Below, piece by piece: positions 7,927-63,300 of a stretch of DNA of 64,000 bases. The notes below the pieces were generated by a model. That model had not been told where the DNA came from, searched no databases, and worked only from the letters and a program-made list of their open reading frames with translations. How positions within the stretch are numbered: the stretch's first letter is position 1; each line of letters begins with the position of its first letter. The translations under genes were made by a program, and so were the position numbers. Origin of the DNA: a virus (taxonomy: Duplodnaviria > Heunggongvirae > Uroviricota > Caudoviricetes); IMG/VR virus record IMGVR_UViG_3300031088_000793; one strand, 5' to 3'.

Positions 7927-8001
7927 GGGAAACTCCTAGAGCTGAATCAGTGGATGTGGTTGGAGCAACACTAACCCCACGGGCTCATGCTGTCAACACT
8001 C

Positions 8002-31450: not shown

Positions 31451-32491
31451 TTACTGGGTGGGAGCGGGCGCCGAGCTACCGGGGACCACGACTGCCGATC
31501 CACCACCGGGCCAGCAGCTGAAACCTGCGGGCAGCGTGTAGTTGCTCTGCGAGGCGTCCTTGAGCAGGTCGAAGCAGCGCGAGACGAGCACATTGGGGTC
31601 GTTGCTCACCGAGTCGGAGAGCTCCTGGTTGGCTCGAGCCTGAGCCTTGGCGGTCTCTTCCTGCTGCGTGGCGATCCGGGTCTCACCGATGGCGGCCACA
31701 TAGTCGTCGAGCTTGCGCTGCGTGTTGTCCGAGAGCTTAAGGTAGGAGAAGGTGATGCCCTCGATCTGAGCCTGGTCCTTCTCCGAGAGGCGCTCCTTCA
31801 TGTCGTCCTCGATGACCTTGGAGATCTCGCCGTAGTCGGGAGCGAAGGACAGGTCCACCGAGAGCTCGTCGCTGCCGACGGACTTGAGCTGAGCGATGGG
31901 GTTGTAGTCCTTCAGGGCTTCCTGGACCGACTGCTTGAGCTGGGTGCTCACGATGGCCGAGCGGAAGGACATGGTGGGGTCGTCGGAGCGGTGCTGCTCG
32001 TAGACGCCGGCGGCCTTCTCAGGGTTGATCTGCCAGCGGTTCACGATGTCAGCACAGCCCTGGCTGCCGTCACCGATGCGGACGGGGATGCAGGCTTCGC
32101 CCTCGTACTGGTCGGTCTGGATAGTGCCGTCGATCTCGACGACCTTGGTCCAGGGTGCCTTCAGGTGGGGGCCGGGGTTCAGGGTCTTCTCCGAGACGGC
32201 GCCGAAGTTGACGGCGACGCCGACATTCTTCGCCGAGACGGTGGTGAAGGCCATGGAGATGAGGATGACCAGTGCGACGGTCGAGACCAGGACGCCACCC
32301 CAGCGGATGCCGTTGCTGGCGAGGCTCGCGGCCTTCAGTCGGCTGATCTGCTTCTCGGTGCCGAGGCCGTCAGCCTGAGCCTTGGCCAGGGTCTGGTCGG
32401 CGATCTTCCGGCGCTTGGAGCCGGTGCGGATGGCGGTGAGCCCTCCGAGGAGAACGATGAGGAGGAACACTGTTCCGAATACTGCGCCCAT
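31451..32491 (-). CDS. SPFH/band-7 (prohibitin/HflKC-like) domain membrane protein
   Basis: N-terminal TM helix, then NVGVAVNFGAVS...PGPHLKAPWTKVVEIDGTIQTD, typical of an SPFH domain, followed by a coiled-coil rich C-terminus. Confidence 0.65.
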   Translation of the reverse strand: MGAVFGTVFLLIVLLGGLTAIRTGSKRRKIADQTLAKAQADGLGTEKQISRLKAASLASNGIRWGGVLVSTVALVILISMAFTTVSAKNVGVAVNFGAVSEKTLNPGPHLKAPWTKVVEIDGTIQTDQYEGEACIPVRIGDGSQGCADIVNRWQINPEKAAGVYEQHRSDDPTMSFRSAIVSTQLKQSVQEALKDYNPIAQLKSVGSDELSVDLSFAPDYGEISKVIEDDMKERLSEKDQAQIEGITFSYLKLSDNTQRKLDDYVAAIGETRIATQQEETAKAQARANQELSDSVSNDPNVLVSRCFDLLKDASQSNYTLPAGFSCWPGGGSAVVVPGSSAPAPTQ

Positions 32492-32560
32492 TGCGTAGTA
32501 CCTTTCGATGTGGTGGTGGATTGGGACAAGGAATACATTACACGGTGCTCAGCACCGAGG

Positions 32561-32970: not shown

Positions 32971-34080
32971 TCAGTTCTGAGCTTCTGCGAGGGAGAGCTC
33001 CACGGTACGCTCAACGGCTAGCTCTCGAAGCCGAAGATCGGTGGCCTCCTTGATGGACTTGGAGAGTTCGTACTGAAGCTCGTCTGCTCCAGCAGAGACG
33101 GGCGCGCCGAGCACCACGATCTTGCTGATGCGCTCGTAGGGTCCCCGGTAGATCCGGTAGGAAACCTCAGCTTCGAGCATGGCTCCAAAGCTCTCGTCGT
33201 CACCCTTGAGCCTGCGGCGAGCGTTGCGCGCACGGACAGCGAGCTTCGGGTCGGGAGTCTCGTCGAGAGGAGATCCCTGGAGCTGCAGGAACTCTTCGGC
33301 CTGAGCCCTGATCTCTTCCTGGAATGCCTTGGTAGCTGCCAACTCCAGCACGGGAATGAGCAAAGAGGCGCCGGTAAGCTTCAGGATCTCGAAGAAGATC
33401 TCACTGTTGGAGTACTCGCTTGCTAGCGCTCCTTCGAGCTGAGGGAGGTCAAATTCCCCCAGCTCTTCGATCAGTGCGGAGAGCTGCTCCGTGCTGGTCA
33501 CCGAGTTCAACAGCGCATCGAAGCCGATTGCGCTGGCGATCACACCTCGAGTGAGCTCCTCGCTGTCCGTCTCGACGAGCTCTCTGAGCACTGCCGTCTT
33601 GAGCTCATCGGTGACCTTGACCTTCCCCGACCGGATCAGCTGGGCGGCGACGAAGGGACTGAGCTCGAACCAGAAGTCCTGAATCTCCTTGGAGGAGAGG
33701 TACTCAGCGTTGTCGGCGTCTGCGTTGAGTGCCGCTACTCGGACCTCTCGGCTCACCAGGGGGTGGCGGATGAGCTCGACGCCCTTCGGTGGCACAGTGG
33801 GGTAGAACGGCCGCCTGCTGTGCCTGAAGAGCTCGCTGCGCTCCGCGATGGCCTCCTCACTGACATCCTTGGCAGAGAAGAACCAGATCGCGGTGGCCAC
33901 ATCACCTGAGCTGTCGATGTAGTCCAGGAGCTTGTCTTCGAGCTCCTCCGAGATCAGGTTGGGGTCGAGCCCCTTGGAGTTGCTCCAGAAGAGATCTTGG
34001 GTGGTGCCCCAGGGGCTCAGTGCCTCGAGGACAGCTCGCTCTGTGCGGAGCTCTTCGAGCTCGAGTGTGGTGTTGTCCAT
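32971..34080 (-). CDS. hypothetical protein (369 aa)
   Basis: Long minus-strand ORF. Confidence 0.55.
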   Translation of the reverse strand: MDNTTLELEELRTERAVLEALSPWGTTQDLFWSNSKGLDPNLISEELEDKLLDYIDSSGDVATAIWFFSAKDVSEEAIAERSELFRHSRRPFYPTVPPKGVELIRHPLVSREVRVAALNADADNAEYLSSKEIQDFWFELSPFVAAQLIRSGKVKVTDELKTAVLRELVETDSEELTRGVIASAIGFDALLNSVTSTEQLSALIEELGEFDLPQLEGALASEYSNSEIFFEILKLTGASLLIPVLELAATKAFQEEIRAQAEEFLQLQGSPLDETPDPKLAVRARNARRRLKGDDESFGAMLEAEVSYRIYRGPYERISKIVVLGAPVSAGADELQYELSKSIKEATDLRLRELAVERTVELSLAEAQN

Positions 34081-34152
34081 GGTGTTCTCCTACTGTTCTG
34101 CCTGTCAGGGCGTCGGTTAAAGATCAGGTCTGTGAAAAGCTGTGGGCAGATC

Positions 34153-35970: not shown

Positions 35971-37188
35971 TTAGTTCTCGCCCTCGTATTCGTAGGTCTT
36001 TCCCCGCCTGTCGAGCTCAATGGCCGCCTCAGCGAAGCCCGAGAGGTCGTGATTCCCTCGAACCCCTCCAGGGCCGCTTCCGAAGCGGGAGAGGATCTCG
36101 GGCGAGACCTCGCGAATCTCCGTGCCGTAGTAGCTACGGATGTCCTCTGCGCTCTTGACTCCGTAGGCGTCGATGAAGCTGCCTGGACTCTCCTTGCTCT
36201 CTACGAAGGCGTGGGCCACATGGTCTCCGAGCTGGCCCCTGGCTGCGGCTCCATCCAGAGTCACACCTGGTGGCAGTTGCTCATCCATCGCAAAGAAGAC
36301 TCGGCCGCCCTGCTTCTCGTGGATGGCCATAGCCAGATCTCCACAGAGGCCGTTGACGAGGTAGTGGCGCGTCTTCGGATCACTGAGATCACCGTCAGCC
36401 ACGGCCACAGCACCGAGGTCGAGATTCAGCTGAACAGTGCCTCGCTCTTCGGCTCCGGGCTGAGCGATGGAGGGAAGTTCCTCTTCTTCGTAGCCGTCCT
36501 CGAAGTCCTCATCCTCGGATTCTTCGAAGTCTTCCCAGCTCAGACCGTCGAGATCCTGAGCGTAGCGCTCGCCTCTACCGTCGAGCTCGATGGCGCTCTG
36601 AGCGAAGCGGCCGAGCCGGTCAGCGCTTTCGCTGTTGCCGAAGTGCTGGAGCATCTCGGGAGTGCCGCGGAGGATGGCCGCATCCTCTCCGTAGCTGTCG
36701 CCCAGGGACTCCGCATCCTGTCTGCCGTAGCTGTCGAGGAACTCCCCCGGAGTGCTCGGCGACTCGAGCACCACATGGGTACTGGCTGCTATCACGGCGT
36801 TGGGCTCCTCAGCGAAGGCCCGGGCAAGATCCTCCTCGCTCTGGTAGCTGAAGGAGAGGAAGTAGGGAGTGCCGCCAGTCTGCCGGTGAATGGCCAAAGC
36901 GAGATCGCCGCAGAGCCCGCCGCTGAGGGCCATTCGCGCCCGAGCGTCGCTGAGGTCACCGTCCAGCACTTCCCACTCGCCGAAGTTGCTGCTGAGGACC
37001 ATGGTCGAAGCATCGGCGAAGCCACTCTGAGCGACTGGAGGGAGGGCTCCACCCATCTGCTCTGCGAAGGCGCTCTCTGCCTCGGCCGCCGAATCGTAGT
37101 GGCCGTCGGCCTCGTAGGGGCATCTTCCGACCTCTGCCCCACAGGGCGCGGGGCCGTCGGGGCTCAGGTGGATCTGTCCTCGTGCCAT
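35971..37188 (-). CDS. hypothetical protein, paralog family C, with internally duplicated domain (405 aa)
   Basis: Two copies of a ~170-aa module (DGDLSD...GLCGDLA(L/M)AIH...FA(Q/E)(S/A)AIELD(G/R)RG). The N-terminus G.IHLSPDGPAPCG..GRCPYE matches 37721..38365. Confidence 0.6.
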   Translation of the reverse strand: MARGQIHLSPDGPAPCGAEVGRCPYEADGHYDSAAEAESAFAEQMGGALPPVAQSGFADASTMVLSSNFGEWEVLDGDLSDARARMALSGGLCGDLALAIHRQTGGTPYFLSFSYQSEEDLARAFAEEPNAVIAASTHVVLESPSTPGEFLDSYGRQDAESLGDSYGEDAAILRGTPEMLQHFGNSESADRLGRFAQSAIELDGRGERYAQDLDGLSWEDFEESEDEDFEDGYEEEELPSIAQPGAEERGTVQLNLDLGAVAVADGDLSDPKTRHYLVNGLCGDLAMAIHEKQGGRVFFAMDEQLPPGVTLDGAAARGQLGDHVAHAFVESKESPGSFIDAYGVKSAEDIRSYYGTEIREVSPEILSRFGSGPGGVRGNHDLSGFAEAAIELDRRGKTYEYEGEN

Positions 37189-37720: not shown

Positions 37721-38365
37721 TCACTCATAGAAGTCGTCGTAGCTGTACTCGTAGCTCGTTCCCTGGCGCTCGAGTTCGAGTGCTGCTTGAGCGAAGCCTG
37801 AGAGATCGTGATCGGCACCGCTGTGGGCATCTCGGAAGATGTGGATCGGAGCCTCTCGGAGGGGATTCTCGAAGAAGTCTTCGATCTCCTCTCGGCTTTT
37901 GACGCCATAGCCGTCGAGGAACTTCCCCGGATGCTCCTTGCTCTCCACCACAGCGTGCATGATGAAGTTAGTGATCTCGCTGATGTCCTTCATCCTTCGG
38001 AGATCCTCCTCGTAGGGCCCCGAACGGCCGCCGTCGATGGCGAGGTAGACCTTTCTGCTTGGATCGAGCTCATGGATGGCGTTTGCGAGATCTGCGCAAA
38101 GTCCGTTGGCGAAATGACCTCGAACCATGGGGTTGCTCAGATCACCGTTGGCTACTGGGAATTGGCCGTAGTGGGTCTCGATGACAACCCTCTCCGGAGC
38201 CTTTCTGGAGGCGACAGGAAGCGCTCCTCCCTGGGACTCTGCGAAGGCGGATTCAGCTTGAGCGGCATCTCCATAGTGACCCGACGGCTCATAGGGGCAC
38301 TGTCCCGTAGTGACGCCGCAGGGCGCAGGGCCCTCCGGGCTGAGGTGAAACTGCCCCTTGGCCAT
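37721..38365 (-). CDS. hypothetical protein, paralog family C, single module (214 aa)
   Basis: MAKGQFHLSPEGPAPCGVTTGQCPYEP...ANGLCADLANAIH...FAQAALELERQG is the same module as in 35971..37188. Confidence 0.6.
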   Translation of the reverse strand: MAKGQFHLSPEGPAPCGVTTGQCPYEPSGHYGDAAQAESAFAESQGGALPVASRKAPERVVIETHYGQFPVANGDLSNPMVRGHFANGLCADLANAIHELDPSRKVYLAIDGGRSGPYEEDLRRMKDISEITNFIMHAVVESKEHPGKFLDGYGVKSREEIEDFFENPLREAPIHIFRDAHSGADHDLSGFAQAALELERQGTSYEYSYDDFYE

Positions 38366-38510
38366 AGTGGATCTCCCTGTCGAACGCTACTGAAGTGATT
38401 CGGTCGAAGCGCTCTCTAACGAGTCTCAGGAACAGCGAGGCAGCGGCAGGAGCATTCAGCATGGGCTCAAATGTTCACGCAGTAGAGACTGTTGAGTCCA
38501 AAAGAAGAAG

Positions 38511-38725
38511 AGGCGACCCCTGACTATGAACACCACATCCGTGTCAGGGGCCGCCTCTAGGCGGAGGGCCTCGCCTCGCTATGAACACCACATCCGTGCG
38601 AGGGACTCTTCTCCGAAGGAATAGCAGCGGACACCACATCCATTGCCGCTATTCCCGCTAGTGGGATTCCCGGGGAGCCATTTGAACACCACATCCGCCG
38701 TGCTCGACCCGGGAATCCCAGTCTG
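38511..38725. ncRNA. candidate structured RNA or DNA element made of four tandem hairpins, each displaying the conserved loop (G)AACACCACATCC
   Basis: Loop repeats at about 38526, 38581, 38629 and 38683. Stems: 15 bp with 1 mismatch (GAGGCGACCCCTGAC/GTCAGGGGCCGCCTC), ~6 bp (CCTCGC/GCGAGG), ~9 bp with a bulge (GAATAGCAGCGG/CCGCTATTC), and 12 bp (GGGATTCCCGGG/CCCGGGAATCCC). The stems differ while the loop is conserved. Confidence 0.35.
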
Positions 38726-38793
38726 TGTTGAGTTTTAGGTCCTCAGTTTCCCGAGGACCAGTCTGTGGGGCCTCCCCGGAGGGAGGGCGAGGC

Positions 38794-39936
38794 CTACTTG
38801 GAGGCCCAGCTGAGGCCGCGAGCCTTGAGCTCGACCTCGGCCTCGGCGTCCGTGAGGGGCGTCTTGCGGTAGTTGCCCCGCACATCGAAGCGCTTGAAGT
38901 CCTCATCGGACTTGGCTCGAAGATCGACCATGTACTTCTCAGCGAGGAGGTCCTCGAGGGAGTAGTAGCCGAAGGGCTGTGAGCTCCGGCCGTTGGGGAG
39001 CCTCATGCTGTAGCCGTTGAGCCAGTACTCCACCGTGCCGCCCTCGCCCGGGCTGGGGCGGCCCAGGGCGTAGTAGCCACCCATGGGCCCAGCCTTGACG
39101 GCCTCGGCGACGGGCTTCAGGAGCTCCATCTGCTCACGGTACCAGCGGTTGCGGGCAGAGATCTGATCCTTAGCCTCCTCGGTGAGGTCTCGGCCATCGA
39201 AGAGGCTGAAGCCGCTGCCGAAGGCACCGATCCCTCCGCCGCCTACGACGAGGTAGCCAGCCTTGGCGGCCTCGACGAGCTTCGAGAGCACGGCGCTGAA
39301 GAGGTTGTCGTGCTTCCTGAAGACGAGCACGGAGCCGTTGTGGAAGTAGCCGGGCTGAGAGCTGACCTCGGGCTCACTGGGGATGGAGTCACCCTGGAGC
39401 TCGGCGAGATCGAAGTCGGTGTGGAGCTTGACGAGCCCATCGCGCTTGAGCTTCGAGTAGCCCTTGATGCCTCGGCTCTTGGCGAGCTCCTTGAGCTCAG
39501 CGACGGTGCTGTTCCAGTACTTGCGCTCGAGGGCGAAGCTGCCGTCCTCGTAGCGCTCAGCGCCGTCGATGTACTTCCGGGCGGCTTCGAGCTCACGCTC
39601 AGCGTCGTAGACGAACTGCTGAGCCTGGAAGGCGATGAGCTCATCCGTCTCGAGGACGAGGTGAGCCTGGGGAAGACCCTCGATGAGTCTACCCTCGTTC
39701 AGGATGTACTCCTGAGCCAAGAAGGAGTCCGCCTGAGCGGTCTGGGAGAAGAGCGTGGCCATCTGACCGGCACCGGCCTCTTCCTCGTAGCGGAAGTCGC
39801 AGCTGTACTGGACGCCGAGGATCGGGTCGCCACCGGGGTTCTCCGCGAGAGCGAGCTCAGCGGTCCGGCTGCGAGCGCGGCCCCTGCTGATCGCTTCGAG
39901 ATCGAGGCGGGCCTCGAAGTCTTTGTAGATCGACAT
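38794..39936 (-). CDS. hypothetical protein with a Rho_N/SAP-like motif and a glycine-rich loop (~380 aa; start MSIYKDF)
   Basis: TVAELKELAKSRGIKGYSKLKRDGLV resembles the Rho termination factor N-terminal/SAP motif. LVVGGGGIGAFGSGF resembles a Rossmann-like (SLOG/LOG-type) nucleotide-binding loop. Confidence 0.5.
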   Translation of the reverse strand: MSIYKDFEARLDLEAISRGRARSRTAELALAENPGGDPILGVQYSCDFRYEEEAGAGQMATLFSQTAQADSFLAQEYILNEGRLIEGLPQAHLVLETDELIAFQAQQFVYDAERELEAARKYIDGAERYEDGSFALERKYWNSTVAELKELAKSRGIKGYSKLKRDGLVKLHTDFDLAELQGDSIPSEPEVSSQPGYFHNGSVLVFRKHDNLFSAVLSKLVEAAKAGYLVVGGGGIGAFGSGFSLFDGRDLTEEAKDQISARNRWYREQMELLKPVAEAVKAGPMGGYYALGRPSPGEGGTVEYWLNGYSMRLPNGRSSQPFGYYSLEDLLAEKYMVDLRAKSDEDFKRFDVRGNYRKTPLTDAEAEVELKARGLSWASK

Positions 39937-40041
39937 GCTCTGTGATCCTTCGGTCGTGGTGTGTTTCGGCGTGGTAGGTCCATCATACGCACAGGCGCTG
40001 ATGGCTGTCAACTCCAGGAGCAAAACTCCCGGAAGCTGCTC

Positions 40042-40857: not shown

Positions 40858-41973
40858 TCACATGTCCTGGGGAACGGGGTTGGTGGGTCTGAAGGGCACG
40901 GTGAGATCGAAGTCGCTCGACTTCGGCACGGCGCCGTCCCAGTTCTTGCCGGTCTTGGCATTGTAGTCAGCTGCCGTGAAGGGACCGACCTCGTCGCCCA
41001 TCACTGAGACCTGATTGCTGTCCTGGAACTCAGTGAAGCGACCCTCTGAATCCCAGGCAATGTAGCTAGGGCCCTGAGCTCTCTCGGCGAAGACATTGCT
41101 GTCCGTCCTGTAGGTCACTGAGCCCGATCCGTCTGCGTTCTCCGCGATGATGATTCGAGCGTAGCCATCCCGAGTGCCAGTGAGATACATCTTGAGATAG
41201 GTAGAGCCATCCTGACTCAGGACGAGGTTCTGCGGTCGAGAGTCACTCCTGTAGGGGGTGCCACCCTTGGGTGAGGTCATCCTGTCGATGGCCAGAGCAC
41301 CGTCACTTCTGATCTGCGAGTTTACAGCGGAGAGCTGACCATCCTCATCGATGTAGCGGGACTCAGAGTATCCGCTGGGACCGTCATTGCTGTACTTGTA
41401 GACGCCCCAGTGGGCTGCAGGCTCTCTGAAGTCAGTGAGTGTGCACTGACCGTTGAGGTTGGTTCCGTAGGTCAAAGTGGTTGGGCTGTTCGGATCGAAG
41501 CTATCAACCATCTGGCTAGAGAGGATCACCGCGTAGGGCATGGATCCATCTGCGGGGAGTCCTGCGATGCTCTCGCCGTCAGTGTTAGAGGAGCGAATCG
41601 ACTGCCAGCCCTCGGCGTGGGTCAGCGCCTGCTCACCGGCAGCTACACGCTCCTCATTGGCCTTGGAGAAGTCAACCATGTCCTGGGTGATCCTGAGGCT
41701 CAGCGAGACACAGTCAAAGTTAGCAACCACTGCGAGGCCGGGGAACTCATCGCCTCCACCGGGATTCTCCTCTCCAGGAGCTTCACCTTCCTGAGCGGTA
41801 CCTCCGATTCCGGCCGTAGCCTTGAACTCGGGGCTCTCCACATTCTCAGCGTGGACGAAGAAAGATCCACCGTCGAGCGCTGCGGAAGCGGGTACTGCGA
41901 CGAGTGGAATAGCGATGGCCATTCCGAGTACTGAGAAGATAAGCCGATGGCGCTTGCCGAATGCTGTGCTCAA
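40858..41973 (-). CDS. secreted protein, paralog family D, member 1 (371 aa)
   Basis: Sec signal peptide (AVPASA/ALDGGSFFVHAENVE). Shares with the other members the N-terminal FFVHAQNIE..FKATAG module, the MVDFSKANE core and the C-terminal NWDG...SDFDLT.PF block. Confidence 0.65.
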   Translation of the reverse strand: MSTAFGKRHRLIFSVLGMAIAIPLVAVPASAALDGGSFFVHAENVESPEFKATAGIGGTAQEGEAPGEENPGGGDEFPGLAVVANFDCVSLSLRITQDMVDFSKANEERVAAGEQALTHAEGWQSIRSSNTDGESIAGLPADGSMPYAVILSSQMVDSFDPNSPTTLTYGTNLNGQCTLTDFREPAAHWGVYKYSNDGPSGYSESRYIDEDGQLSAVNSQIRSDGALAIDRMTSPKGGTPYRSDSRPQNLVLSQDGSTYLKMYLTGTRDGYARIIIAENADGSGSVTYRTDSNVFAERAQGPSYIAWDSEGRFTEFQDSNQVSVMGDEVGPFTAADYNAKTGKNWDGAVPKSSDFDLTVPFRPTNPVPQDM

Positions 41974-42119
41974 GTTGTCTCCCTCCTAGGGTCGGTGGAG
42001 CATATCGAAGGCCCGATGCGCTAAAATCTCAAATCTTAGCAAGCCCCAGCAACGAGGAACCGCCCGGCTGCTCCGATCCGAAGAGCGAAGCAGCCGGGCG
42101 GCTATGGGGAAGGAGGTGC

Positions 42120-42617
42120 TCAGAGGTAGCGCTTCTCGATCTTGGCGATAGCCTCGAGGAGGACGGCGATCTCGGGGAGCCCACCGGGAGGAGCGTGGAG
42201 CACGGCGACTCCATTCTCCTCGGCGGTTGCGAGCTCCATGTCGGTACCCACGGCCTCGACGCCAGCGGGAGTGACCGCCACGACGAGATCCGACTCGATG
42301 ATGGCCATGTCGTTGACTCGCTGAGCCGACTCATGCCAGCCGCCCGACCAGGCCCGGTGAGGGGAGTAGACGAGGCAGCCGTTGTGGATCAGCTCGGCAC
42401 GGACGAGATCCCGCCAGGCAGCGTAGATCTTGTACTCCTCGGAGTCGATGCGGCCCCACCAGGTCTTGATGGGGCCGATGACCACCACTCGGAGGGGAAC
42501 GCCGTCGGGGAGATCGGTCTCCACGGCGCCGTTGCCACCGACGGCGAGGAGAGCCTTGAAGCGATCGACCATCTCCTCAGTGGTGGGAGGGAAGTCAGCA
42601 GGGTTGAGTTCTGTCAT
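42120..42617 (-). CDS. nucleoside 2-deoxyribosyltransferase-like (Rossmann/SLOG-type) protein
   Basis: VYSP...ESAQRVNDMAIIESDLVVAV...GTDMELATAEENGVAV resembles the nucleoside deoxyribosyltransferase-like fold motifs. Confidence 0.45.
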   Translation of the reverse strand: MTELNPADFPPTTEEMVDRFKALLAVGGNGAVETDLPDGVPLRVVVIGPIKTWWGRIDSEEYKIYAAWRDLVRAELIHNGCLVYSPHRAWSGGWHESAQRVNDMAIIESDLVVAVTPAGVEAVGTDMELATAEENGVAVLHAPPGGLPEIAVLLEAIAKIEKRYL

Positions 42618-42659
42618 AGTCGGATCCTATCGCAGCTTCCGCCAGCTGTCAAAAGCTGA

Positions 42660-43382
42660 CTAGAGCCGCTCTCCCAGGATCACAGACCAGTTGAGCTCTG
42701 AGCGCTCGAAGGGGAGCTGAAGCTCCCGGTTCGAGCTTCCGATGGAGCTCACGCCCTGCTCCCAGCTGATCTTCCTTCGCTTCAGGCTGCTGGCCATGGC
42801 TGAGATGAACTCGCCCCGAGACTCAGCGTCCATGACGAGCTCCACGCTCCAGTAGCGCACGGGCATGGAGCCGAAGTGGTTCTGACCGAAGCCGTCGGGA
42901 TTGGGAAGGAGCTTCCCCATGATGCTCTCAGTCCAGAAGCGATCCTCGAGATCCTTCGCAGAGAGGAAGCCAGCCCTGTTGGCGTCCTGCTTCGAATCGA
43001 ACCACTTCCCATCGAGCTGAGCCTGAACTGCCTGAGCGTTCCGAACTGCCTGATTCGAGGGTGGTTGCCGGGTCCTCTTCTGCCTCGCTGGCTTGCCGTT
43101 GAGCTTGCTCTTGGGGTGGGTCCCTCGCTCTCGCCTCCGGACGCTCTCTGAGCTAGAGCGCACCTTGGAGCCACCCAGGGCCTTGGCTGAGATCTCAGGC
43201 TCGCCGTTGTCTCGAGCCCAGCCATTGACCTCGCTGAGGTCCCGGGCTCTTCCGAGCTCAGAGATTCCACTGTCCACTTCGGGAACAGCCTTCTTCAGCT
43301 TGCTGATCGAGCGAGAGCTCCAGCCGAGGTGAGCGAGGTCTCGCACTGAGACCCAGCCCTGATCTACCCACTTAGCAGCCAT
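42660..43382 (-). CDS. protein with an N-terminal Lsr2-like DNA-binding motif (240 aa)
   Basis: LSEVNGWARDNGEPEISAKA resembles the Lsr2 C-terminal DNA-binding helix (AIREWAR.NGH.VS.RGRIPA), followed by a basic linker. Confidence 0.45.
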   Translation of the reverse strand: MAAKWVDQGWVSVRDLAHLGWSSRSISKLKKAVPEVDSGISELGRARDLSEVNGWARDNGEPEISAKALGGSKVRSSSESVRRRERGTHPKSKLNGKPARQKRTRQPPSNQAVRNAQAVQAQLDGKWFDSKQDANRAGFLSAKDLEDRFWTESIMGKLLPNPDGFGQNHFGSMPVRYWSVELVMDAESRGEFISAMASSLKRRKISWEQGVSSIGSSNRELQLPFERSELNWSVILGERL

Positions 43383-43387
43383 GGGCT

Positions 43388-43621
43388 TTAGCGGCCTGTG
43401 GCTTCAGCATCGGGCTTTGCCCGGGCCCTCCAGAGGGTGAGGGCAGCGGAGCCGACGAAGAAGAGCGCTCCTAGGATACCCACGGAGAACACGGCCCAGA
43501 ACTTGCCGCCATCGAGCCCTGAGGCCACGAGGAGGCTGATTCCGAGGAGGCCGAGGGCAACGATCAGATCTGAGAGCAGGCTGCTGCCGATGGACTTCTT
43601 TGCTTCGCTGCTGTTTGTCAT
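43388..43621 (-). CDS. small membrane protein (77 aa)
   Basis: Two TM helices. Confidence 0.45.
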   Translation of the reverse strand: MTNSSEAKKSIGSSLLSDLIVALGLLGISLLVASGLDGGKFWAVFSVGILGALFFVGSAALTLWRARAKPDAEATGR

Positions 43622-43676
43622 GGAACTACGCTACCGAAGCGAGGCCGGAATCGCTACCGGCCCCGCAGGTCCCCCA

Positions 43677-44765
43677 TCAGTTGCTCGGAGCGAAGGGGAT
43701 CGTCTGGTGGAAGTCGCTGGGCTTGGAGTAGAGACCGTTCCAGTTCTGGCCTGTTCCGGCGTTGTAGCTCTCCTTGGTAGCGCCCTGGAGCTTACCGTTG
43801 GCGTCGTAGAGCCCGGTCACCTTTCCAGCACTGTCGAAGGTGATTCCCACGGGCCCCTGAGCCCTCTTGGCATTGGTGGGCACCAGGGTCTCGAAGTTGT
43901 TCAGGAGCTGGTAGATCAGGGTGCTTGAGCCATCTGGATAGATCTCAAGCTTGACCATGTTGTAGCCATCGACGGTTGTGGGGAAGAGCACATTGAGGAG
44001 CTTGCCGTCTGAGTAGACTCCGAGGAAGTAGGGCTTGACTAGGCTAGCTGCGGGGTTGGAGGATGAGGGGGAAGACTTCCTGTAGACTTCCTTGCCTCCA
44101 TCGCTGAAGACCTTCGAGGAGATAGCCCTGAGGTCACCCTCCTCCTCGATGTAGCGCACCTCTTCCTTGGCTGTCTTGTCCTGGATCGTGTAGAAGATGG
44201 CGTTGGCCTTGGGGATCTCCCGCAGATCCAGAGCCGAGCAGTACTCAGGGTCATCGATGAACATGAGCTTAGTGTTGCGGGTGTCATCGGGGTTGTCGAC
44301 CACATTGGGAATGTCCGCGGTCGTGCTGAGGTGGACGATTCGAGGCTTAGAGCCATCGGCTGGGAAGCCAAGTCTCATCCTGCCAGCAGATGCATCGTAG
44401 TGAGAGATCACGGCCCATCCACCGGAGTGGTACTTGATCTGATCCCACTTGCCCTGAGCTACTAGGAGCTCGTTGGCCTTGGAGAAGTCAACCATTTCCT
44501 TGGTGACCTCGAAGTTCAGCGCACCACAGCGGTAGCTAGCGAAGACTCGGGAGTCGCCCGTGTTGCCTCCACTGGGATCCGAGACGATCTTGGTCCCCAT
44601 GCCCGCGATGGCCTGCACACCGGCTGTGCTCTTGTTCTGAGCCTTGACGAAGAACCCTCCACCCGGAAGGCTAGCAGATGCTGGAAGTGCTGCGAGGGGT
44701 ACTGCGAGGATGAGGCCCAGGGCTGATACCATCAGCAGCTGCCTTCGGGATGCGGGTCTCTTCAC
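43677..44765 (-). CDS. secreted protein, paralog family D, member 2 (362 aa)
   Basis: Signal peptide ...ALPASA/SLPGGGFFVKAQNKS, the MVDFSKANE core, and the C-terminal NWNGLYSKPSDFHQTIPF block. Confidence 0.65.
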   Translation of the reverse strand: MKRPASRRQLLMVSALGLILAVPLAALPASASLPGGGFFVKAQNKSTAGVQAIAGMGTKIVSDPSGGNTGDSRVFASYRCGALNFEVTKEMVDFSKANELLVAQGKWDQIKYHSGGWAVISHYDASAGRMRLGFPADGSKPRIVHLSTTADIPNVVDNPDDTRNTKLMFIDDPEYCSALDLREIPKANAIFYTIQDKTAKEEVRYIEEEGDLRAISSKVFSDGGKEVYRKSSPSSSNPAASLVKPYFLGVYSDGKLLNVLFPTTVDGYNMVKLEIYPDGSSTLIYQLLNNFETLVPTNAKRAQGPVGITFDSAGKVTGLYDANGKLQGATKESYNAGTGQNWNGLYSKPSDFHQTIPFAPSN

Positions 44766-44930
44766 TGCTCATCTTCCTAGCTCTTAGGGTGCATTTTTCG
44801 CAGGATCGGGTGGGTCCTGTTCTACCCTGAGGCCTGTGTCAGTGTGGTGCTCAGATCCGAAGTGCCTGGGGCAAGGCGGATGGCCTGAGAGTCGGGTAGC
44901 CCTACTATCGCATAGCCCATACCCCTCGGC

Positions 44931-44974
44931 ATCGAGTGGAGCCCCGGGAATTCCGAACCGGAGCTCGATGTTCC
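44931..44974 (-). terminator. hairpin downstream of 45054..46187
   Basis: 12-bp inverted repeat GAGCCCCGGGAA/TTCCCGGGGCTC with a ~20-nt loop. Confidence 0.4.
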
Positions 44975-45053
44975 CGGGGCTCAGCGATCAGCCCAGTAGC
45001 CCTACTGAGGAGGCTTAGCCGTGAAGGATATCCGGGGGCTCTCGCCGCGCTGC

Positions 45054-46187
45054 TTAGAGGCTGGGAGGCGTCGGCACGAAGGGGAAGCTCAGGTCGAAGT
45101 CCGAAGGCTTCTGGTAGGAGCCGTCCCAGTTCATTCCGGTAGCCTCGTTGTACTCCTCGACGGTGAATGGTCCACCGCGCCAGAATACGGTGGAGCCGGG
45201 CTTGCCACCCTCGAGCCCTGTGATCTCACCCTCAGCGTTCCAGATGATGCCGGTGGGACCCTGCGTTCTGTTGGGAGCACCGATCTTCAGGGATGTGGCT
45301 GAGTTTGCCCCCAGGTAGTTGCTGTAGGAGATCGATCCCGAGCCATCGGGATTGGCTGTGACAGTGATCCTGTTGTAGCCGTCGATGGTCTCCTTGAGGA
45401 TGAGCTCTGCTCTTACCACACCGGCCTGGCTCTTTGAGAGCGAGTAGGGCTTGCTGTTGCTCTTTGCAGGGTTGTAGGAAACCGCCGATTCCTTTCGACT
45501 GATGGTGTTAGCGCCGTCTGCCTGCCGTGCTGAGCTCACGGCCACAAGTGCGCCGTCTTCCCGGAGGTAGCGACTCTCGGAGAATGCACCGTTGGAGAGC
45601 ATCCAGTAGCCGAAGCCCTTGCCCTCGGCAGCTCCGGAGCGAGCATCGAGGTAGCTGCAGTTGGCACTGTTGTCAAGCCTGAGCACAACGCCGTTGGTGG
45701 GACCGGGCTGGTCGCTAGTTGCGGGAAGTGCCATGTCTGACTTCAGGTAGACCAGCGGAGGAACTGATCCGTCCTCGGGATAGCCGGCGATCATCTTCCT
45801 CTCAGTTGCTGAGAAGTAGGCCATCGACTGCCAGCCCTCTGCGTTGGTCTGAGGCGCCTTGCCCTCGGCTGCAAGAGCCTGGTTCGCCTTGGAGAAGTCC
45901 ACCATGGCCTGAGTCACTGCGAAGCCCAGCGGGCCGCAGCTGTAGCTCGCGAGGGTAGCTGAGCTCTCGTCCCCGCCGGGATCGACCTCTCCGCCGCCCG
46001 GGGCTGAGCCGTCTGACTTCAGGCCTGCATAGGCTTCGTACTCGGGCTCTTCGATGTTCTGAGCGTGGACGAGGAAGCGGCCGTCGTCGAGGCTTGCCGA
46101 TGCGGGCAGAGCTACGAGGGGGACGAGGATGGCGGCGCCGATGGCTGAGACGATGATGCCCTGGCGCCTACGAGTTGCTCGATTCAA
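45054..46187 (-). CDS. secreted protein, paralog family D, member 3 (377 aa)
   Basis: Signal peptide, LDDGRFLVHAQNIEEPEYEAYAG, MVDFSKANQ, and the C-terminal NWDGSYQKPSDFDLSFPF block. Confidence 0.65.
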   Translation of the reverse strand: MNRATRRRQGIIVSAIGAAILVPLVALPASASLDDGRFLVHAQNIEEPEYEAYAGLKSDGSAPGGGEVDPGGDESSATLASYSCGPLGFAVTQAMVDFSKANQALAAEGKAPQTNAEGWQSMAYFSATERKMIAGYPEDGSVPPLVYLKSDMALPATSDQPGPTNGVVLRLDNSANCSYLDARSGAAEGKGFGYWMLSNGAFSESRYLREDGALVAVSSARQADGANTISRKESAVSYNPAKSNSKPYSLSKSQAGVVRAELILKETIDGYNRITVTANPDGSGSISYSNYLGANSATSLKIGAPNRTQGPTGIIWNAEGEITGLEGGKPGSTVFWRGGPFTVEEYNEATGMNWDGSYQKPSDFDLSFPFVPTPPSL

Positions 46188-46263
46188 AGCTGGTTCTCCT
46201 TGATTGCAGGTGGAGCCATATCGACAACCGTTGGAGAATTCAGTGGATCTCTCTGCGAAAAGA

Positions 46264-46300
46264 AGCGACTGTCCTCGAACCGAGGCTCGGGGACAGTCGC
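46264..46300 (-). terminator. rho-independent terminator downstream of 46322..47461
   Basis: 10-bp stem GCGACTGTCC/GGACAGTCGC followed on the minus strand by TTCTTTTCG. Confidence 0.55.
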
Positions 46301-46321
46301 TCTAGGCTAGACCGAGATCAG

Positions 46322-47461
46322 CTAACTGAGAGGGACAGCTTCGAAGGGGATTGTGAGATCGAAGTCAGTGCCCTTGAGGTAGCTTCCGTCCCAGCTCTGC
46401 CCAGTGAGCTCATTGTACTTGGCCGCTGTGAAGGCGCTGTCTCCGAAGTTCTCGTGGCTGTCGTAGGATTGAAGGTAGGTGAAGTCCCCAGAAGAGTTCC
46501 ATCTTACAGTCACAGGTCCGTTCTTTAGAGGGGCATAGGTCTCCGCCTGCTGTCCATCAGCCGTGAGCCCTCTGTGATCCAGGTATTGCACCTCTCCCGA
46601 GCCGTCGGCATTCACTCCCAGCGAGACCTTGTTGGCGCCGTCGATGGGCGTCTTGAGGTAGACCTGAATCGTGAGGCTACCGTCCAGCCCTCGGTAGATC
46701 ACAGAGGGCTTACTGTCGCTCTTAGCGTGGTCCACTAGGGACCCTGAGACGCCCCTGTCGACTGTGGTTCTACCGTCCGTCTGCTTTGCCACGGTGACTG
46801 CGCGGAGCTCGCCTTCCTCGAGGATCCAGCGCGTGTCCGCATAGTAGTCTCGCTCAGGCGCGTTGACCTGATCGTAGGAGGGATAGGCATTGTAGGACAG
46901 CCTGTCTCCGTTCTTGGGCGTTGAGCGCCTGTCGTAGATCTGACACATCTCGCCCTCCTGGTAGGCAAAGGCCTTGGTGTCAGGAGTAAGACTCAGGGGT
47001 GCTGGAACTGCCATGCTGTCGGATAGAGTGACGAGTAGGGCCTTAGCCTCGCCCTCGGGATAGCCCAGCGCGACGCTCCTCGTAGCCATGTAGAAGCTCG
47101 ACATCGACTGCCAGCCATCCGGAGAAGTTTCGGGAGTCCGAGACTCATTGGCCTTGGAGAAGTCCACCATGGCCTGAGTGATCTTGAGCTCCATGGGACC
47201 GCACTGGTAGCTTGCGAGCACACCGGAGCTGTCGGTGGGTCCGCCAGGGCTTTCTGTACCTGAGCCACCGCCTCCACTGGGATCTACTCCTTTGAGTCCA
47301 GCAGTGGCCTTGAATTTGCTGTCTTCGATGTTCTGCGCGTGGACGAAGAACCCACCCCCATCGAGGCTTGCCGATGCGGGAACAGCGATGAGTGGCACAG
47401 CTAGAGCTGCACCTAGAGTGGCGAGGAAGATCTTCCTCGCTTTGCGGGGCGTTCTGTTCAA
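46322..47461 (-). CDS. secreted protein, paralog family D, member 4 (379 aa)
   Basis: Its N-terminal 60 aa are nearly identical to member 5 (MNRTPRKARKIFLATLGAALAVPLIAVPASASLDGGGFFVHAQNIEDSKFKATAGLKG). Confidence 0.65.
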   Translation of the reverse strand: MNRTPRKARKIFLATLGAALAVPLIAVPASASLDGGGFFVHAQNIEDSKFKATAGLKGVDPSGGGGSGTESPGGPTDSSGVLASYQCGPMELKITQAMVDFSKANESRTPETSPDGWQSMSSFYMATRSVALGYPEGEAKALLVTLSDSMAVPAPLSLTPDTKAFAYQEGEMCQIYDRRSTPKNGDRLSYNAYPSYDQVNAPERDYYADTRWILEEGELRAVTVAKQTDGRTTVDRGVSGSLVDHAKSDSKPSVIYRGLDGSLTIQVYLKTPIDGANKVSLGVNADGSGEVQYLDHRGLTADGQQAETYAPLKNGPVTVRWNSSGDFTYLQSYDSHENFGDSAFTAAKYNELTGQSWDGSYLKGTDFDLTIPFEAVPLS

Positions 47462-47505
47462 GATCTTCTCTCCCTGATGAAAGCAGCACTGGTCACATCA
47501 TAGGA
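47455..47505. repeat. duplicated ~50-bp 5' region, also present at 48895-48945
   Basis: CTGTTCAAGATCTTCTCTCCCTGATGAAAGCAGCACTGGT versus CTGTCCAAGATTTTCTCTCCCTGATGAAAGCTGCACTGGT, immediately upstream of members 4 and 5. Confidence 0.6.
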
Positions 47506-47639
47506 ATTGAGCTCTCCAGCCGCGTAATCGGTGAGGTTCCGAGGCTGGAGAGATTCCGCATCTAGAATGCTGAAATGTTCCTATGTGACGGATTATCAAC
47601 ACAGCTGAAGCGCCGGAGATAGCACCGTAGACTCACTGA

Positions 47640-47680
47640 CAGGAATTGCCCCTCGGAGCTCAGCTCCGAGGGGCAATTCC
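47640..47680 (-). terminator. strong hairpin downstream of 47700..48902
   Basis: 19-bp perfect inverted repeat AGGAATTGCCCCTCGGAGC/GCTCCGAGGGGCAATTCCT with a 3-nt loop. Confidence 0.5.
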
Positions 47681-47699
47681 TGAGATCCTAGTTCAATCG

Positions 47700-48902: not shown

Positions 48903-49212
48903 GATTTTCTCTCCCTGATGAAAGCTGCACTGGTTTGCATCGTAGGCTCAAGGTCTATTGCTACGCTCTCCCGGCACCGGAGCTGGTTGGCACTCCGGAT
49001 TCGAGCGTCGCTGCACTTGGAGCACAGAGAGTCGCCTACCCAATCCACTATCAACAACGGTTGCAATTCAAGTTAGCCTCCGCTGAAAAACGAAGAGGCC
49101 AGTCAGGGAATCTGGACCTATTCACCAGGACCTGTGTGAATGGTACAAGAAAGTAGCTGATCTGTTGGCGCTATTGCACAATGGCTCCTCAGCGCCATTC
49201 CCTCGGCCAAAG

Positions 49213-49251
49213 AGAAAGGCCACCTTCCTTCCCAGGTGGGGAGGCGGTGGC
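49213..49251 (-). terminator. rho-independent terminator downstream of the small ORF 49280..49449
   Basis: GGCCACC...GGTGGCC stem with inner pairing, followed on the minus strand by TTTCTCTTTGG. Confidence 0.45.
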
Positions 49252-49279
49252 CTGAGCGGATGGAGCTAGGAGCGGATGC

Positions 49280-56204: not shown

Positions 56205-56254
56205 CGGTTACCTCTTTCGGGAATGGCTGAAGTCTGTGGTGTTGCTACGGTTCA

Positions 56255-59053: not shown

Positions 59054-59287
59054 CTACGCGGGAAGGGCGAAGCCGAGCTTACCCAGAGCGATCTCCACCA
59101 GGGACTCGATGATGTCGTCATCCTCCCGGGCGAGGCTGAAGTCCTCGAGGCTCATGGTGCCCTCGCTCCAGCCCTCGTAGACCCGGTCGCAGGAGTAGAT
59201 CTCTTGGCCGAGGTAGCTGGCGAAGGCCTCGCGGAGCTCGTCGGCCTTGGCCTGGTCGATGACCTTGGGGGATGTGGTGGAGTCCAT
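59054..59287 (-). CDS. hypothetical acidic protein (77 aa)
   Basis: Minus-strand ORF. Confidence 0.45.
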   Translation of the reverse strand: MDSTTSPKVIDQAKADELREAFASYLGQEIYSCDRVYEGWSEGTMSLEDFSLAREDDDIIESLVEIALGKLGFALPA

Positions 59288-61053: not shown

Positions 61054-63216
61054 TCAGAGGAGCTCGAGGAGTGCGGCCCGGTCCACGGGCTCCTGAATCG
61101 TTGCCACTCCGTGAGCAGAAGCCCAGAGCTCGGCGAGGCGACCCATGGAGAACTTCGGACGGGCGAGCTCATCGTAGACGATGGCGCCCACGGTGTCGTC
61201 CTCGGTGGAGGACAGCCCCGAGGCGGTCGAGCCGTTGGAGGAGTCGATCCAGACGAGGCGGCCCGTCTCCAGGTTCACAGCGAAGGGCACCGACTGAGTG
61301 GACTTCGTGGTGGGCTTGAAGGCCGTGGCCACCGAGCGCGCATCGAAGGTCTGACCGGCCTTGCCCTCGCTCCGGAGCATGGCTCCAGCGATGAAGTCCA
61401 CATCGGCCATGGGGAAGCCGGACCAGGACTGCACGGTCATGGCCACCCACTTGGCTCCACGGAAGCGAGCGCGGAGCTTCACCAGCTTCAGGTCGATGAA
61501 CTCAGCTGCCGAGTCGCCGGGGTTGACATACTTGTCTCCGGAGTAGGTGCTCCAGTCTCGAGCCATGTTCCAGGAGTTCCAGGTGGTCACAGCGACCTGC
61601 TCGAAGTCCCCGTCGAGGACCACAGCGCCGATGTCCATGTAGCCACCGGTGATCTGATTGTTGTTCCAGTGGCCGAAGATCCGCAGGGTGTCACCCTCGC
61701 CGGCCAGGGCAAGCTCCTCGCCTCGGTCCAGCACTCGATCAGCGGTGGCCGCGTCCCGGCGAACCAGGGGCACGGGGAGCTCGGAGCTGATGCCCACGGG
61801 GCCGCTGGGAGCACCCTTGGAGCTCAGCGAGCCTCGGATGGCATCGTCGAGCGCGCCGAGGATGGCGGCCTGGTAGTGGGCATCGATCTTGGCGACCGCA
61901 GCCCGGTCCTGCATGGTGTTAGTGAGCCCAGCCACTCGCGTAACTCGAGCGTGCTCGTCGTTGGCGGAGAGGACACCGTTGTAGGCGGAGATCAGCGTGG
62001 TGAGCGCAGCGCCCCGGCCCACGATGCCCACGGCATCGGCGAGCTTCGCAGCGTCCGAGTCGTCGGTGGTGAGCCTGAGGATGGCCACGAGGCGGCGCAG
62101 GAGGTTGCCGGGCTGGTACTCAGCGAGGAGCTGAGCAACAAGGCCGGTCTCGCCCTTCTCCAGACCCTCCTCCACCAGGGAGTTCAGGGTGCGGTACTCG
62201 ATGTTGCCGTGGATGATGTCAGCAGCCCTGCGGGCAGCGTCGCTGAGCTTCAGGTCGTAGGGGTGCACCGTCCGGAGCACGCCACGCCAGAGGTTCACTC
62301 GAGCGAGGAGTCGGTCAGCGTGGAAGCCACTCGTGAGCTCGCCGAGGCGAGCGACCAGAGCACCTCGCAGGAAGCGAGGGATGTTGGAGTAGCGCACGGC
62401 GCGAGCGTGGCGATCCGCCAGGGTGCCCACGGCCAGAGCGTAGTTCTCTGCCCACCTGGCTCCCGAAGGAGCGGTGTAGAGCGAGAGCACGACTCGAAGG
62501 AGGTGATCCACCGAACGGACGCTGGAGAGCGCGATGCTGAAGAGCGACTCGGAGGTGAAGTTCGAGGTCGGAGCGATCCAGTCGCGGACGGCCTCGACGA
62601 AGACCTGGATGTTCTCACCGTTGGAGGCAGCGCGGAGCACAGCATCCGTGGAGGAGGAGAGCTCGACGGCCCGGTCGCGGAGCGCCTCGGTGCTGTAGAT
62701 CACAGCGACGGCGCCAGCGAGGAGCTCCCGGTCGGCCTCGGAGAGGGCAACGGGGTCGCCGACGAGCTCAGCGATGAGAGCCTGGGATGCGTCGGTTGCC
62801 TTGAGCACACGGAGCGCCCGGGCGCTGCGCAGCATGTCCTCGAGGGGAAGACCCTCGCGGACCACGGTGGGGTAGTCGGGGAGGAAGACGCCGCCGGTCC
62901 AGTAGTGGAGGAGCTGCTCGACGATGAGCGTGGTGGTGGAGAGCGCCTCGACCTGCTCGGGGAAGCCAGCGTAGATGGGGTCCATGGCCCGGTCTGCGCC
63001 GATCACAACGCGAGCCTCGGCGATGCTGTCCTTGAGCGAGGCTGCGGTGAAGCCTGCGAGCTCCTTGGGATCTGCGACGAAGCCGAGGTTGGCGAGCTCC
63101 AGCACGGCAGCGTAGCGCACGGCGTCGCTGGCGGGCGTCGATGCCGGAGCATCGGGAGCGATGAGGATGCCGCGGCGAAGGGCCGAGCGGCGGAAGGAGG
63201 CTGTGAGCTGAGCCAT
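61054..63216 (-). CDS. large hypothetical protein (720 aa)
   Basis: The longest ORF in the window. Consistent codon usage. AAAGGAGAAC Shine-Dalgarno. The antisense 730-aa ORF is a GC artifact. Confidence 0.65.
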   Translation of the reverse strand: MAQLTASFRRSALRRGILIAPDAPASTPASDAVRYAAVLELANLGFVADPKELAGFTAASLKDSIAEARVVIGADRAMDPIYAGFPEQVEALSTTTLIVEQLLHYWTGGVFLPDYPTVVREGLPLEDMLRSARALRVLKATDASQALIAELVGDPVALSEADRELLAGAVAVIYSTEALRDRAVELSSSTDAVLRAASNGENIQVFVEAVRDWIAPTSNFTSESLFSIALSSVRSVDHLLRVVLSLYTAPSGARWAENYALAVGTLADRHARAVRYSNIPRFLRGALVARLGELTSGFHADRLLARVNLWRGVLRTVHPYDLKLSDAARRAADIIHGNIEYRTLNSLVEEGLEKGETGLVAQLLAEYQPGNLLRRLVAILRLTTDDSDAAKLADAVGIVGRGAALTTLISAYNGVLSANDEHARVTRVAGLTNTMQDRAAVAKIDAHYQAAILGALDDAIRGSLSSKGAPSGPVGISSELPVPLVRRDAATADRVLDRGEELALAGEGDTLRIFGHWNNNQITGGYMDIGAVVLDGDFEQVAVTTWNSWNMARDWSTYSGDKYVNPGDSAAEFIDLKLVKLRARFRGAKWVAMTVQSWSGFPMADVDFIAGAMLRSEGKAGQTFDARSVATAFKPTTKSTQSVPFAVNLETGRLVWIDSSNGSTASGLSSTEDDTVGAIVYDELARPKFSMGRLAELWASAHGVATIQEPVDRAALLELL

Positions 63217-63224
63217 GTGGTGTT

Positions 63225-63300
63225 CTCCTTTGGAAGCTGAGGTCAGGAAAGACGAGACGGCGAATTTTAAGAGAAAGTAGCCACCCCAAGGGGCCTGACA
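63225..63300. repeat. ~75-bp direct repeat, copy 1 (promoter/5'UTR of 61054..63216); copy 2 at 63423-63500
   Basis: GAAGCTGAGGTCAGGAAAGACGAGACGGCGAATTTTAAGAGAAAGTAGCCACCCCAAGGGGCCTGACA versus GAAGCTGAGGTGAGGAAAAGCGAGACGGCAGAATTTTTCCAGTAAAAGTAGCCACCCCAAGGGGCCTCACA. Confidence 0.6.

Follow-up and report, generated by a model that had tools for sequence, protein, structure and literature searches.

The 64,000-nt stretch analyzed here (IMG/VR virus record IMGVR_UViG_3300031088_000793; hereafter the window) holds, in the gap between two minus-strand genes (37721-38365 and 38794-39936, encoding proteins of 214 and 380 amino acids (aa)), four consecutive hairpins that share one loop motif, at the place where a first-pass annotation of this DNA had seen them. 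The minus strand is here the strand of the genes and also that of the array. Read from it, as the first-pass annotation had proposed, the region encodes a structured non-coding RNA of ~240 nt in which the stems vary and one constant tip is presented four times. The functional core lies at 38497-38737, narrower than the whole interval of 38470-38793 that had been suggested. Written on the plus strand, the motif occurs exactly (AACACCACATCC) at 38529, 38584 and 38685, while the copy at 38630 (GACACCACATCC) has one mismatch; the spacing between copies is 55, 46 and 55 nt, in line with the regular spacing already described. Outside the array there are zero copies at ≤1 mismatch in the 64-kb window, and at ≤2 mismatches the window has 15 matches against 2.6 expected (0/100 shuffles).

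The same four-hairpin array was found directly 3′ of a homolog of the 380-aa gene in 14 loci, that is, in the window and in 13 metagenomic relatives (relatives' DNA was taken from twelve homolog loci and from four more loci recovered by a metagenome-wide motif scan), and the 14 sequences were aligned with MAFFT (alignment A1). RNAalifold recovers the four hairpins from this alignment and 21 of the 56 pairs are doubly changed and still paired, so the covariation of stems that the first-pass annotation wanted checked across related loci is indeed there. When loop-internal pairs are excluded, 95% of stem cells are paired and the observed covariation is reached by 0/500 column shuffles; in a control where the 3′ partners were slid by 1-3 columns, pairing falls to 41-54%. 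Counted arm by arm over 56 hairpins, there are 554 Watson-Crick, 27 G·U, 0 A·C and 6 other pairs. Since G·U pairs are tolerated and A·C pairs are absent, the hairpins are intact on the gene strand only, and this excludes selection on duplex or cruciform DNA as well as on the opposite strand. The gene strand also folds more stably than the opposite strand in 14/14 loci, and in the window the minus-strand fold, another of the proposed checks, reaches -118.7 kcal/mol (z = -4.95). What the related loci keep is the base-paired stems around the motif (56 hairpins), not the motif alone. Rfam covariance models at their gathering threshold gave no match in the whole window, a permissive Rfam scan of 38350-38850 returned noise only (microRNA models, E≥0.1), and a tRNA/tmRNA search found nothing. 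The array represents a new family of structured RNAs, and as a feature it has good support.

The anatomy of the individual hairpins (Table 1) departs in several details from what had been described at first. The stems are dissimilar in sequence, as claimed, but their lengths, from hairpin 4 to hairpin 1, become 16, 6, 11-12 and 13(+4) bp: the single mismatch of a supposed 15-bp stem is a G·U pair on the minus strand, completing 16 bp, and a stem of ~9 bp with a bulge turns out to have 11-12 bp, G·U pairs included, with the bulge not borne out. The loops do carry the motif, but they are themselves structured, with GGA pairing to UYC and only an apical (U)GUGGUG left over. The stem of hairpin 3 exists in six sequence versions among the relatives, every one of them paired. 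RNAalifold pairs part of the junction element with the 3′ flank of hairpin 3, where invariance leaves no covariation. The direct repeat CCAGTCTGTG at 38718 and 38758 was confirmed; on the minus strand it corresponds to a lead-in, CACAGACUGG, which precedes hairpin 1 and also precedes a remnant hairpin. Ahead of hairpin 1 the A-rich lead-in AAAACUnnACAnAGAC is conserved across the alignment, and the segment at 38721..38737 is a candidate processing site or could mark where the mature RNA begins.

Table 1. Positions of the RNA array, its transcription unit and the predicted target sites of its tips in the 64,000-nt window (SD, Shine-Dalgarno sequence; MFE, minimum free energy).
Feature	Position	Strand	Description
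σ70-type promoters (first base of -35)	63336, 42652, 40011, 32564, 26988, 7996	minus	pattern scan
σ70-type promoter	39982..40011	minus	TTGACA, 18-nt spacer, TATGAT; regex scan
5′ leader of 380-aa gene	39937..39975	minus	G-poor, C/A-rich; putative transcription start
380-aa protein gene	38794..39936	minus	SAP/Rho_N-like motif, otherwise novel fold; constant upstream partner of the RNA
Spacer	38738..38793	minus	two hairpins, 38769-38794 and 38738-38759; neither has a U-tract
Lead-in UAAAACUCAACACAGAC	38721..38737	minus	near-invariant alignment columns; unpaired in MFE and consensus folds
Hairpin 1	38662..38720	minus	tip GGAUGUGGUGUUC, plus-strand 38684-38696; compensatory changes in outer and inner stems
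Inverted repeat, hairpin 1	38662-38674 / 38708-38720		13 bp + inner GAGC/GCUC helix
Hairpin 2	38617..38656	minus	tip GGAUGUGGUGUCC, plus-strand 38629-38641; double changes in 7/8 pairs
Inverted repeat, hairpin 2	38618-38628 / 38645-38655		11-12 bp, includes G·U
Junction element GGAGAAGAGUCC	38604..38615	minus	5′ side of hairpin 3; core GAGAWGAGUCC invariant
Hairpin 3 + conserved 3′ flank GNGAGGCCCUCC	38563..38603	minus	tip plus-strand 38583-38595; flank 38563-38573
Inverted repeat, hairpin 3	38574-38579 / 38598-38603		6-bp core
Hairpin 4, then UCUUCUUUU	38500..38558	minus	16-bp stem; tip plus-strand 38528-38540; intrinsic-terminator-like 3′ end
Inverted repeat, hairpin 4	38509-38524 / 38543-38558		16 bp
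Predicted site GAACACCACAU	63215..63225	minus	11-nt perfect complement, between SD and AUG of 720-aa gene
Predicted site CACCACAUCC	59270..59279	minus	10 nt, at +8 of gene 59054-59287
Predicted site AACACCACA	56235..56243	minus	39 nt upstream of gene 55653-56204
Predicted double site GAACACCA at -7, AACACCACA at +6	34066..34087	minus	around start of gene 32971-34080
Predicted site CACCACAUC	32507..32515	minus	abuts SD upstream, gene 31451-32491, σ70-promoter leader; unpaired probability 0.84
Predicted site ACCACAUCC	7952..7960	minus	leader of gene 7606-7926, downstream of σ70-type promoter

Within the tips the hexamer GUGGUG is invariant (56/56). The triplets that flank it are GGA/UUC in 40 tips, GGA/UCC in 11, GGG/UCC in 1, AGG/CCU in 2 and CGA/UUC in 2; the AGG/CCU variant is fully compensatory and the CGA/UUC variant has one pair broken, so that the mini-helix is paired in 54/56 tips and GGA itself is present in 51/56. 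An additional U precedes GUGGUG in 42/56 tips. As modeled from these alignments and folds, the tip is best described as a 3-bp GGA/UYC mini-helix that would close an apical (U)GUGGUG loop and would sit on a small internal loop above the variable stem.

This anatomy bears on the likeness to CsrA/RsmA sponge RNAs drawn by the first-pass annotation, which does not hold. The invariant part is GUGGUG and not GGA, which is replaced by GGG, CGA or AGG in 5/56 tips; the strongest sequence constraint in the tips lies 3′ of GGA; and the loops, 14-23 nt long, are not A(N)GGAX hexaloops set directly on a stem. The close fit to the CsrA consensus has to be abandoned too, given that the family does not keep the A of A(N)GGA and that GGA is predicted to be paired with UYC. 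Hairpins 3 and 4 of the window read ACGGAU, a bona fide RsmE-binding loop sequence. Work on CsrA/RsmE recognition found occlusion of GGA by pairing to be the most damaging change for binding, and affinity to be lowered by extra nucleotides between hexaloop and stem (Duss et al. 2014, PMC4005645). The earlier remark that no CsrA homolog is visible in the window was upheld by six-frame translation (all phmmer E-values >1), no Hfq homolog is encoded in the window, and the Csr/Rsm family models in Rfam returned no match. A CsrA-type protein sponge is not supported.

A promoter of the form TTGACA-N17/18-TATGAT is conserved ahead of the gene homologous to the 380-aa gene in every related locus, and in the window it would leave a leader of about 39-45 nt, where the sequence ACACCAC (39956-39962), complement of the loop core GUGGUGU, adjoins the SD sequence GAAGGA (39946-39951). 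A terminator scan called hairpin 4 together with UCUUCUUUU, and the U-tract is kept in all 14 loci. The stretch from the stop codon of the 380-aa gene to hairpin 4 gave no further terminator, and a search of 38300-38950 gave no σ70-like promoter. Because there is a single upstream promoter and a terminator only after hairpin 4, the array is placed in the 3′ part of the transcription unit of the 380-aa gene, with which it appears to be co-transcribed from the σ70-type promoter, ending at hairpin 4 and the U-tract. In three of the array loci a conserved small hydrophobic open reading frame (ORF) sits between the 380-aa gene homolog and the array; it has ~38-50 aa (...ADAWGxKLKxWV.G*) and is located at 2496-2612 in L005, at about 4173-4313 in L140 and at 4173-4313 in L142. 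Only its last ~30 nt remain in the window (38738-38767), where they form the hairpin 38738-38759.

The 380-aa upstream protein has 21 metagenome homologs with 34-75% identity. Its two most divergent lineages, L137 (34% identity) and L143 (47% identity, GC 50%), are without the array; in the former the 380-aa homolog is leaderless (2930-3003: TTGACA, 17 nt, TAGTAT, 6 nt, ATG). Nucleotide conservation is 0.72-0.97 over the array in 8 of 9 comparisons, the ninth (L142, 0.41) being an extraction artefact, versus 0.67-0.82 in the adjoining coding sequence and ~0.60 in the downstream 200 nt. Wider searches added nothing to the family. A paired-motif scan of metagenomes gave >120 matches, and all but four were GT-rich satellites, coding repeats or unrelated repeats; the motif scan of species-representative genomes (GTDB) gave eight matches, all by chance and in coding sequence, and the paired-motif scan of IMG/VR only two chance matches in AT-rich coding sequence. 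Protein scans of IMG/VR with the flanking proteins and the 720-aa protein (the predicted main target) found no match, nor did tblastn of the 380-aa protein in phages or megablast of the window DNA against phages and plasmids (INPHARED, PLSDB). Within reach of pattern and protein searches, then, the element was not found in IMG/VR, INPHARED, PLSDB or the GTDB representatives, and a literature search by motif strings retrieved primers and miRNAs only. The string GGATGTGGTGTCC also occurs inside unrelated repeats elsewhere in metagenomes: a 37-nt tandem repeat with a hairpin of its own (L114, 60-170), a ~40-nt unit in direct plus inverted copies (L032, 2360-2530) and repeats immediately after a tRNA/tmRNA-like 3′ end (L013, 5240-5330, reverse strand). 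These three have neither the junction element nor the four-hairpin architecture of the family.

Perfect complements of the tips concentrate at predicted starts of genes in the window, start codons in all target tests being predictions and not annotations. On the sense strand, 6/6 complements of at least 9 nt fall within -55..+20 of a predicted start, a region that makes up 10.3% of the sequence (P=0.0005 in a permuted-motif test), and the antisense strand has none; at ≥8 nt, 10/20 are near starts (P=0.001). A scan for σ70-type promoters (TTGACN, 16-18 nt, TANNNT) finds six on the minus and zero on the plus strand of the window. The six sites of ≥9 nt cover three of the four long-leader transcripts of this type; the remaining one, from the RNA's own gene, contains a complement of 7 nt, so that the element is present downstream of 4/4 σ70-type promoters whose leader has ≥40 nt. 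In the 50 nt ahead of starts, CACCAC is enriched ~3x. Local accessibility is at or above the 90th percentile for 6/7 sites, and at the own-leader site (39956-39962) the unpaired probability is 0.93. Duplexes between loops and own leaders, summed over 12 loci, amount to -233.6 kcal/mol, versus -204.8±8.8 for dinucleotide-shuffled leaders (0/200), with per-locus values that are modest and loci that are not independent.

The reading that we favor, at a probability of roughly 45%, is that the RNA may be a four-seed antisense regulator of translation-initiation regions in the same element, its own mRNA included. The four tips would be equivalent antisense seeds and would pair with accessible C/A-rich (CACCACAUCC-like) sequences in the initiation regions of about ten mRNAs of the element, including σ70-type-promoter (presumably early) messages and the leader of the RNA's own mRNA. 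Pairing in the interval from -40 to +20 around the start codon would interfere with binding of the 30S subunit and so, in this proposal, the RNA, either as a 3′ untranslated region (UTR) or as a processed 3′-derived small RNA (sRNA), would damp or shut off translation of the target set, acting in cis, in trans or both. The broader notion of an RNA-only, chaperone-free control of σ70-driven (early) messages in a very large actinophage-like element, an RNA counterpart of T4 RegA, we regard as doubtful.

Several observations weigh against the antisense regulator. A window-wide duplex-energy test was not significant, 14/150 permuted loops doing equally well, and the sites in duplex-energy target scans were scattered; the exact-match test, adopted because permutations of a G/U-rich loop pair promiscuously in the energy test, is post hoc, devised after the latter had failed. 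The loci of relatives (89 kb) show no start-region enrichment, although they neither replicate nor refute targeting because they cover only the immediate neighborhood of the 380-aa gene. The CACCAC leader and the array are not strictly linked, since L143 keeps a CACCACA leader (ACACCACA) with no array downstream. A mini-helix fixed in sequence, together with an extra U in many tips, resembles a surface for protein recognition, and extended pairing of the tips would, as the fold is modeled, require the mini-helix to open.

These last features lead to a serious, if unlikely, rival, in which the array is a multivalent sponge or scaffold whose tips are sites for a sequence-specific phage or host RNA-binding protein that becomes titrated or assembled there, working like CsrB/RsmZ with another protein. 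The tip is invariant in 56/56 cases and the mini-helix keeps its sequence, beyond its pairing, in 51/56; a fourfold repeat on freely varying stems is the classic architecture of a decoy RNA, and the constant neighbor is a 380-aa protein of unassigned fold with a SAP-like nucleic-acid-binding motif. What such a sponge leaves unexplained is the concentration of perfect tip complements at the element's own starts.

Capture of a host RNA is a good deal less probable. The G/U-rich tips would then trap a CACCAC-bearing host sRNA or the 3′ end of a tRNA (...CACCA), like the UGGN bulge of a T-box, UGGU and UGGUG being complementary to ACCA and CACCA 3′ ends as in T-box and RNase P recognition. The apical loops of 6-7 nt are ideal in size for kissing or loop-linear pairing, and the window encodes a 2H-SAK/LigT phosphoesterase of RNA-repair type. 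Against this, the loops of the actinobacterial 6C sRNA (UCCUCCCCCCCU) are not complementary to the tips, and a sponge for 6C sRNA was rejected for that lack of complementarity. Mimicry of 16S rRNA or of a T-box was dropped as well, the shared stretches of 7-9 nt being no longer than chance could give between sequences of such length.

We attach equally little credence to a passive module at the 3′ end, in which the hairpins would only protect the mRNA from 3′ exonucleases and terminate it and the tip would have no ligand of its own. Hairpin 4 with its U-tract is terminator-like, neither terminator nor promoter was found between gene and array, and it is always the same gene whose 3′ end carries the array; yet a stabilizer needs pairing only, whereas 13 nt per tip are constant on stems that change freely, this constancy holds across lineages whose proteins are 48-75% identical, and the junction GAGAWGAGUCC is likewise invariant. 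A DNA element (an iteron, operator or partition-site array, or a cruciform, bound by a protein such as the neighbor with the SAP motif), which the first-pass annotation had kept as its alternative, could draw on the 46-55-bp repeat spacing of about five helical turns and on the SAP-like motif of the adjoining protein, but the asymmetry of 27 G·U versus 0 A·C is unexpected for a duplex or cruciform, the covarying, compensatory stem changes are unexpected at duplex DNA sites and the U-tract is strand-specific, and we reject it as extremely improbable.

Around the array, the window (GC 62%) has about 90 small, mostly orphan genes, nearly all on the minus strand. A Pfam scan of 69 further ORFs matched eight families only (2H-SAK, LigT, MazG, SprT-like, Band_7, GNAT and two DUFs); a 2H-SAK/LigT-like 2H phosphoesterase of RNA-repair type, a MazG pyrophosphohydrolase and a SprT-like protease are thus among the window proteins. 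The larger ORFs encode a fatty-acid desaturase, a cation-efflux protein, DUF808, a YitT family protein, an AAA ATPase and an endonuclease VII/HNH-like protein, and database relatives of the 720-aa protein were found in actinophages only, namely Mycobacterium phage WXIN (47% identity) and Rhodococcus phage Weasels2. For two of the promoters, 42652 and 26988, an ATG follows after 6-7 nt, which would make their transcripts leaderless, a pattern repeated in related loci; promoters and leaderless transcripts together suggest an actinobacterial-type host. The window is located at about 263-270 kb of a 673-kb metagenomic contig (ena:ERZ27247443:k141_645502); relatives come from contigs of 346, 193 and 111 kb. 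Taken together, these features indicate a very large, phage-like element whose host is of actinobacterial type, be it free phage, prophage or some other kind of extrachromosomal element; if a phage, it would be exceptionally large for such a host.

Downstream of the array, the 214-aa protein (37721-38365) and a 405-aa protein (35971-37188), both on the minus strand, are paralogs with shared N-termini (MAKGQFHLSPEGPAPCG... / MARGQIHLSPDGPAPCG...); the 405-aa paralog has its C-terminal domain repeated, and neither has a Pfam or PHROG match. Within the window the sequence GTTAGA[GT]AG appears just twice, both times on the minus strand: at 38420, where it lies 55 nt ahead of the 214-aa gene, and at 37221, 33 nt ahead of the gene for the 405-aa paralog. 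It also precedes homologs of the 214-aa gene in L139-L142 and is a candidate promoter or operator particular to this family of genes. Further upstream, a run of consecutive genes of 362-400 aa (40858-50769, minus strand) comprises at least two paralogs, probably six, that have signal peptides and no Pfam match; 40858-41973 and 43677-44765 are the pair with a clear likeness.

To our knowledge, very few regulatory RNAs have been described in phages of high-GC Gram-positives, and none in huge uncultivated elements from metagenomes. The array adds a new RNA family supported by covariation and of unusually clear design (four interchangeable tips on four stems free to vary), with a concrete predicted target set inside the same genome. 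Were the antisense model true, a large phage would coordinate translation of its early genes by a single RNA with neither Hfq nor CsrA; were the tips to bind a protein instead, the RNA would be a ready bait for a new RNA-binding protein. Either way the family merits an Rfam covariance model.

Among known systems, ToxI, the type III antitoxin RNA, and phage pseudo-ToxI resemble the array as tandem structured RNA units on a mobile element. ToxI units are, however, near-identical over their full length and located directly upstream of an endoribonuclease toxin gene, whereas here only the 13-nt tip is common and each hairpin has its own orthologs. Downstream of the array the gene differs from locus to locus, encoding the 214-aa protein in the window and, among relatives, a PGPGW membrane protein or something else; there is neither a Pfam toxin domain nor an Rfam match; a ToxI-like antitoxin RNA was rejected. 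With CsrB and RsmX/Y/Z the array shares many hairpins that repeat one short GGA-containing motif, and differs in that its GGA is variable and predicted to be paired, with no A(N)GGAX hexaloop placed directly on a stem. Like the 3′ UTR-derived sRNAs MicL and CpxQ, it lies between a stop codon and an intrinsic terminator with no promoter of its own found, and its conserved A-rich single-stranded lead-in is a candidate processing site. Known 3′ UTR-derived sRNAs, a class with a review of its own (PMC9438474), usually have one seed and depend on Hfq; here four identical predicted seeds stand in hairpin tips and processing is putative.

Phage T4 RegA is a protein that represses translation of early mRNAs, its own message included. 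Under the antisense proposal the analogy is functional, an early phage product acting at the initiation regions of early messages, and the difference is that the effector here would be an RNA acting by base pairing. The RNA is of the multi-loop sRNA kind, its tip being complementary to accessible initiation regions. The 6C sRNA (B11) of Actinobacteria, which are high-GC Gram-positives, pairs through identical hairpin loops near ribosome-binding sites and does so without a chaperone such as Hfq or ProQ (PMC6486639); S. aureus RNAIII and RsaE, with loops rich in C, are cases similar to 6C. As in 6C, several hairpins of the array share one single-stranded loop sequence, here a predicted seed, and the host type suggested here by leaderless transcripts and σ70 -10/-35 promoters fits high-GC Gram-positives. 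The two differ in that the loops of the two 6C hairpins are C-rich (≥6 C; L3, UCCUCCCCCCCU) and target G-rich SD sequences, while the loops here are G/U-rich with C/A-rich predicted targets; there are four seeds here versus two in 6C, and this RNA, with no Rfam match to 6C, comes from the 3′ end of an mRNA of a phage-like element.

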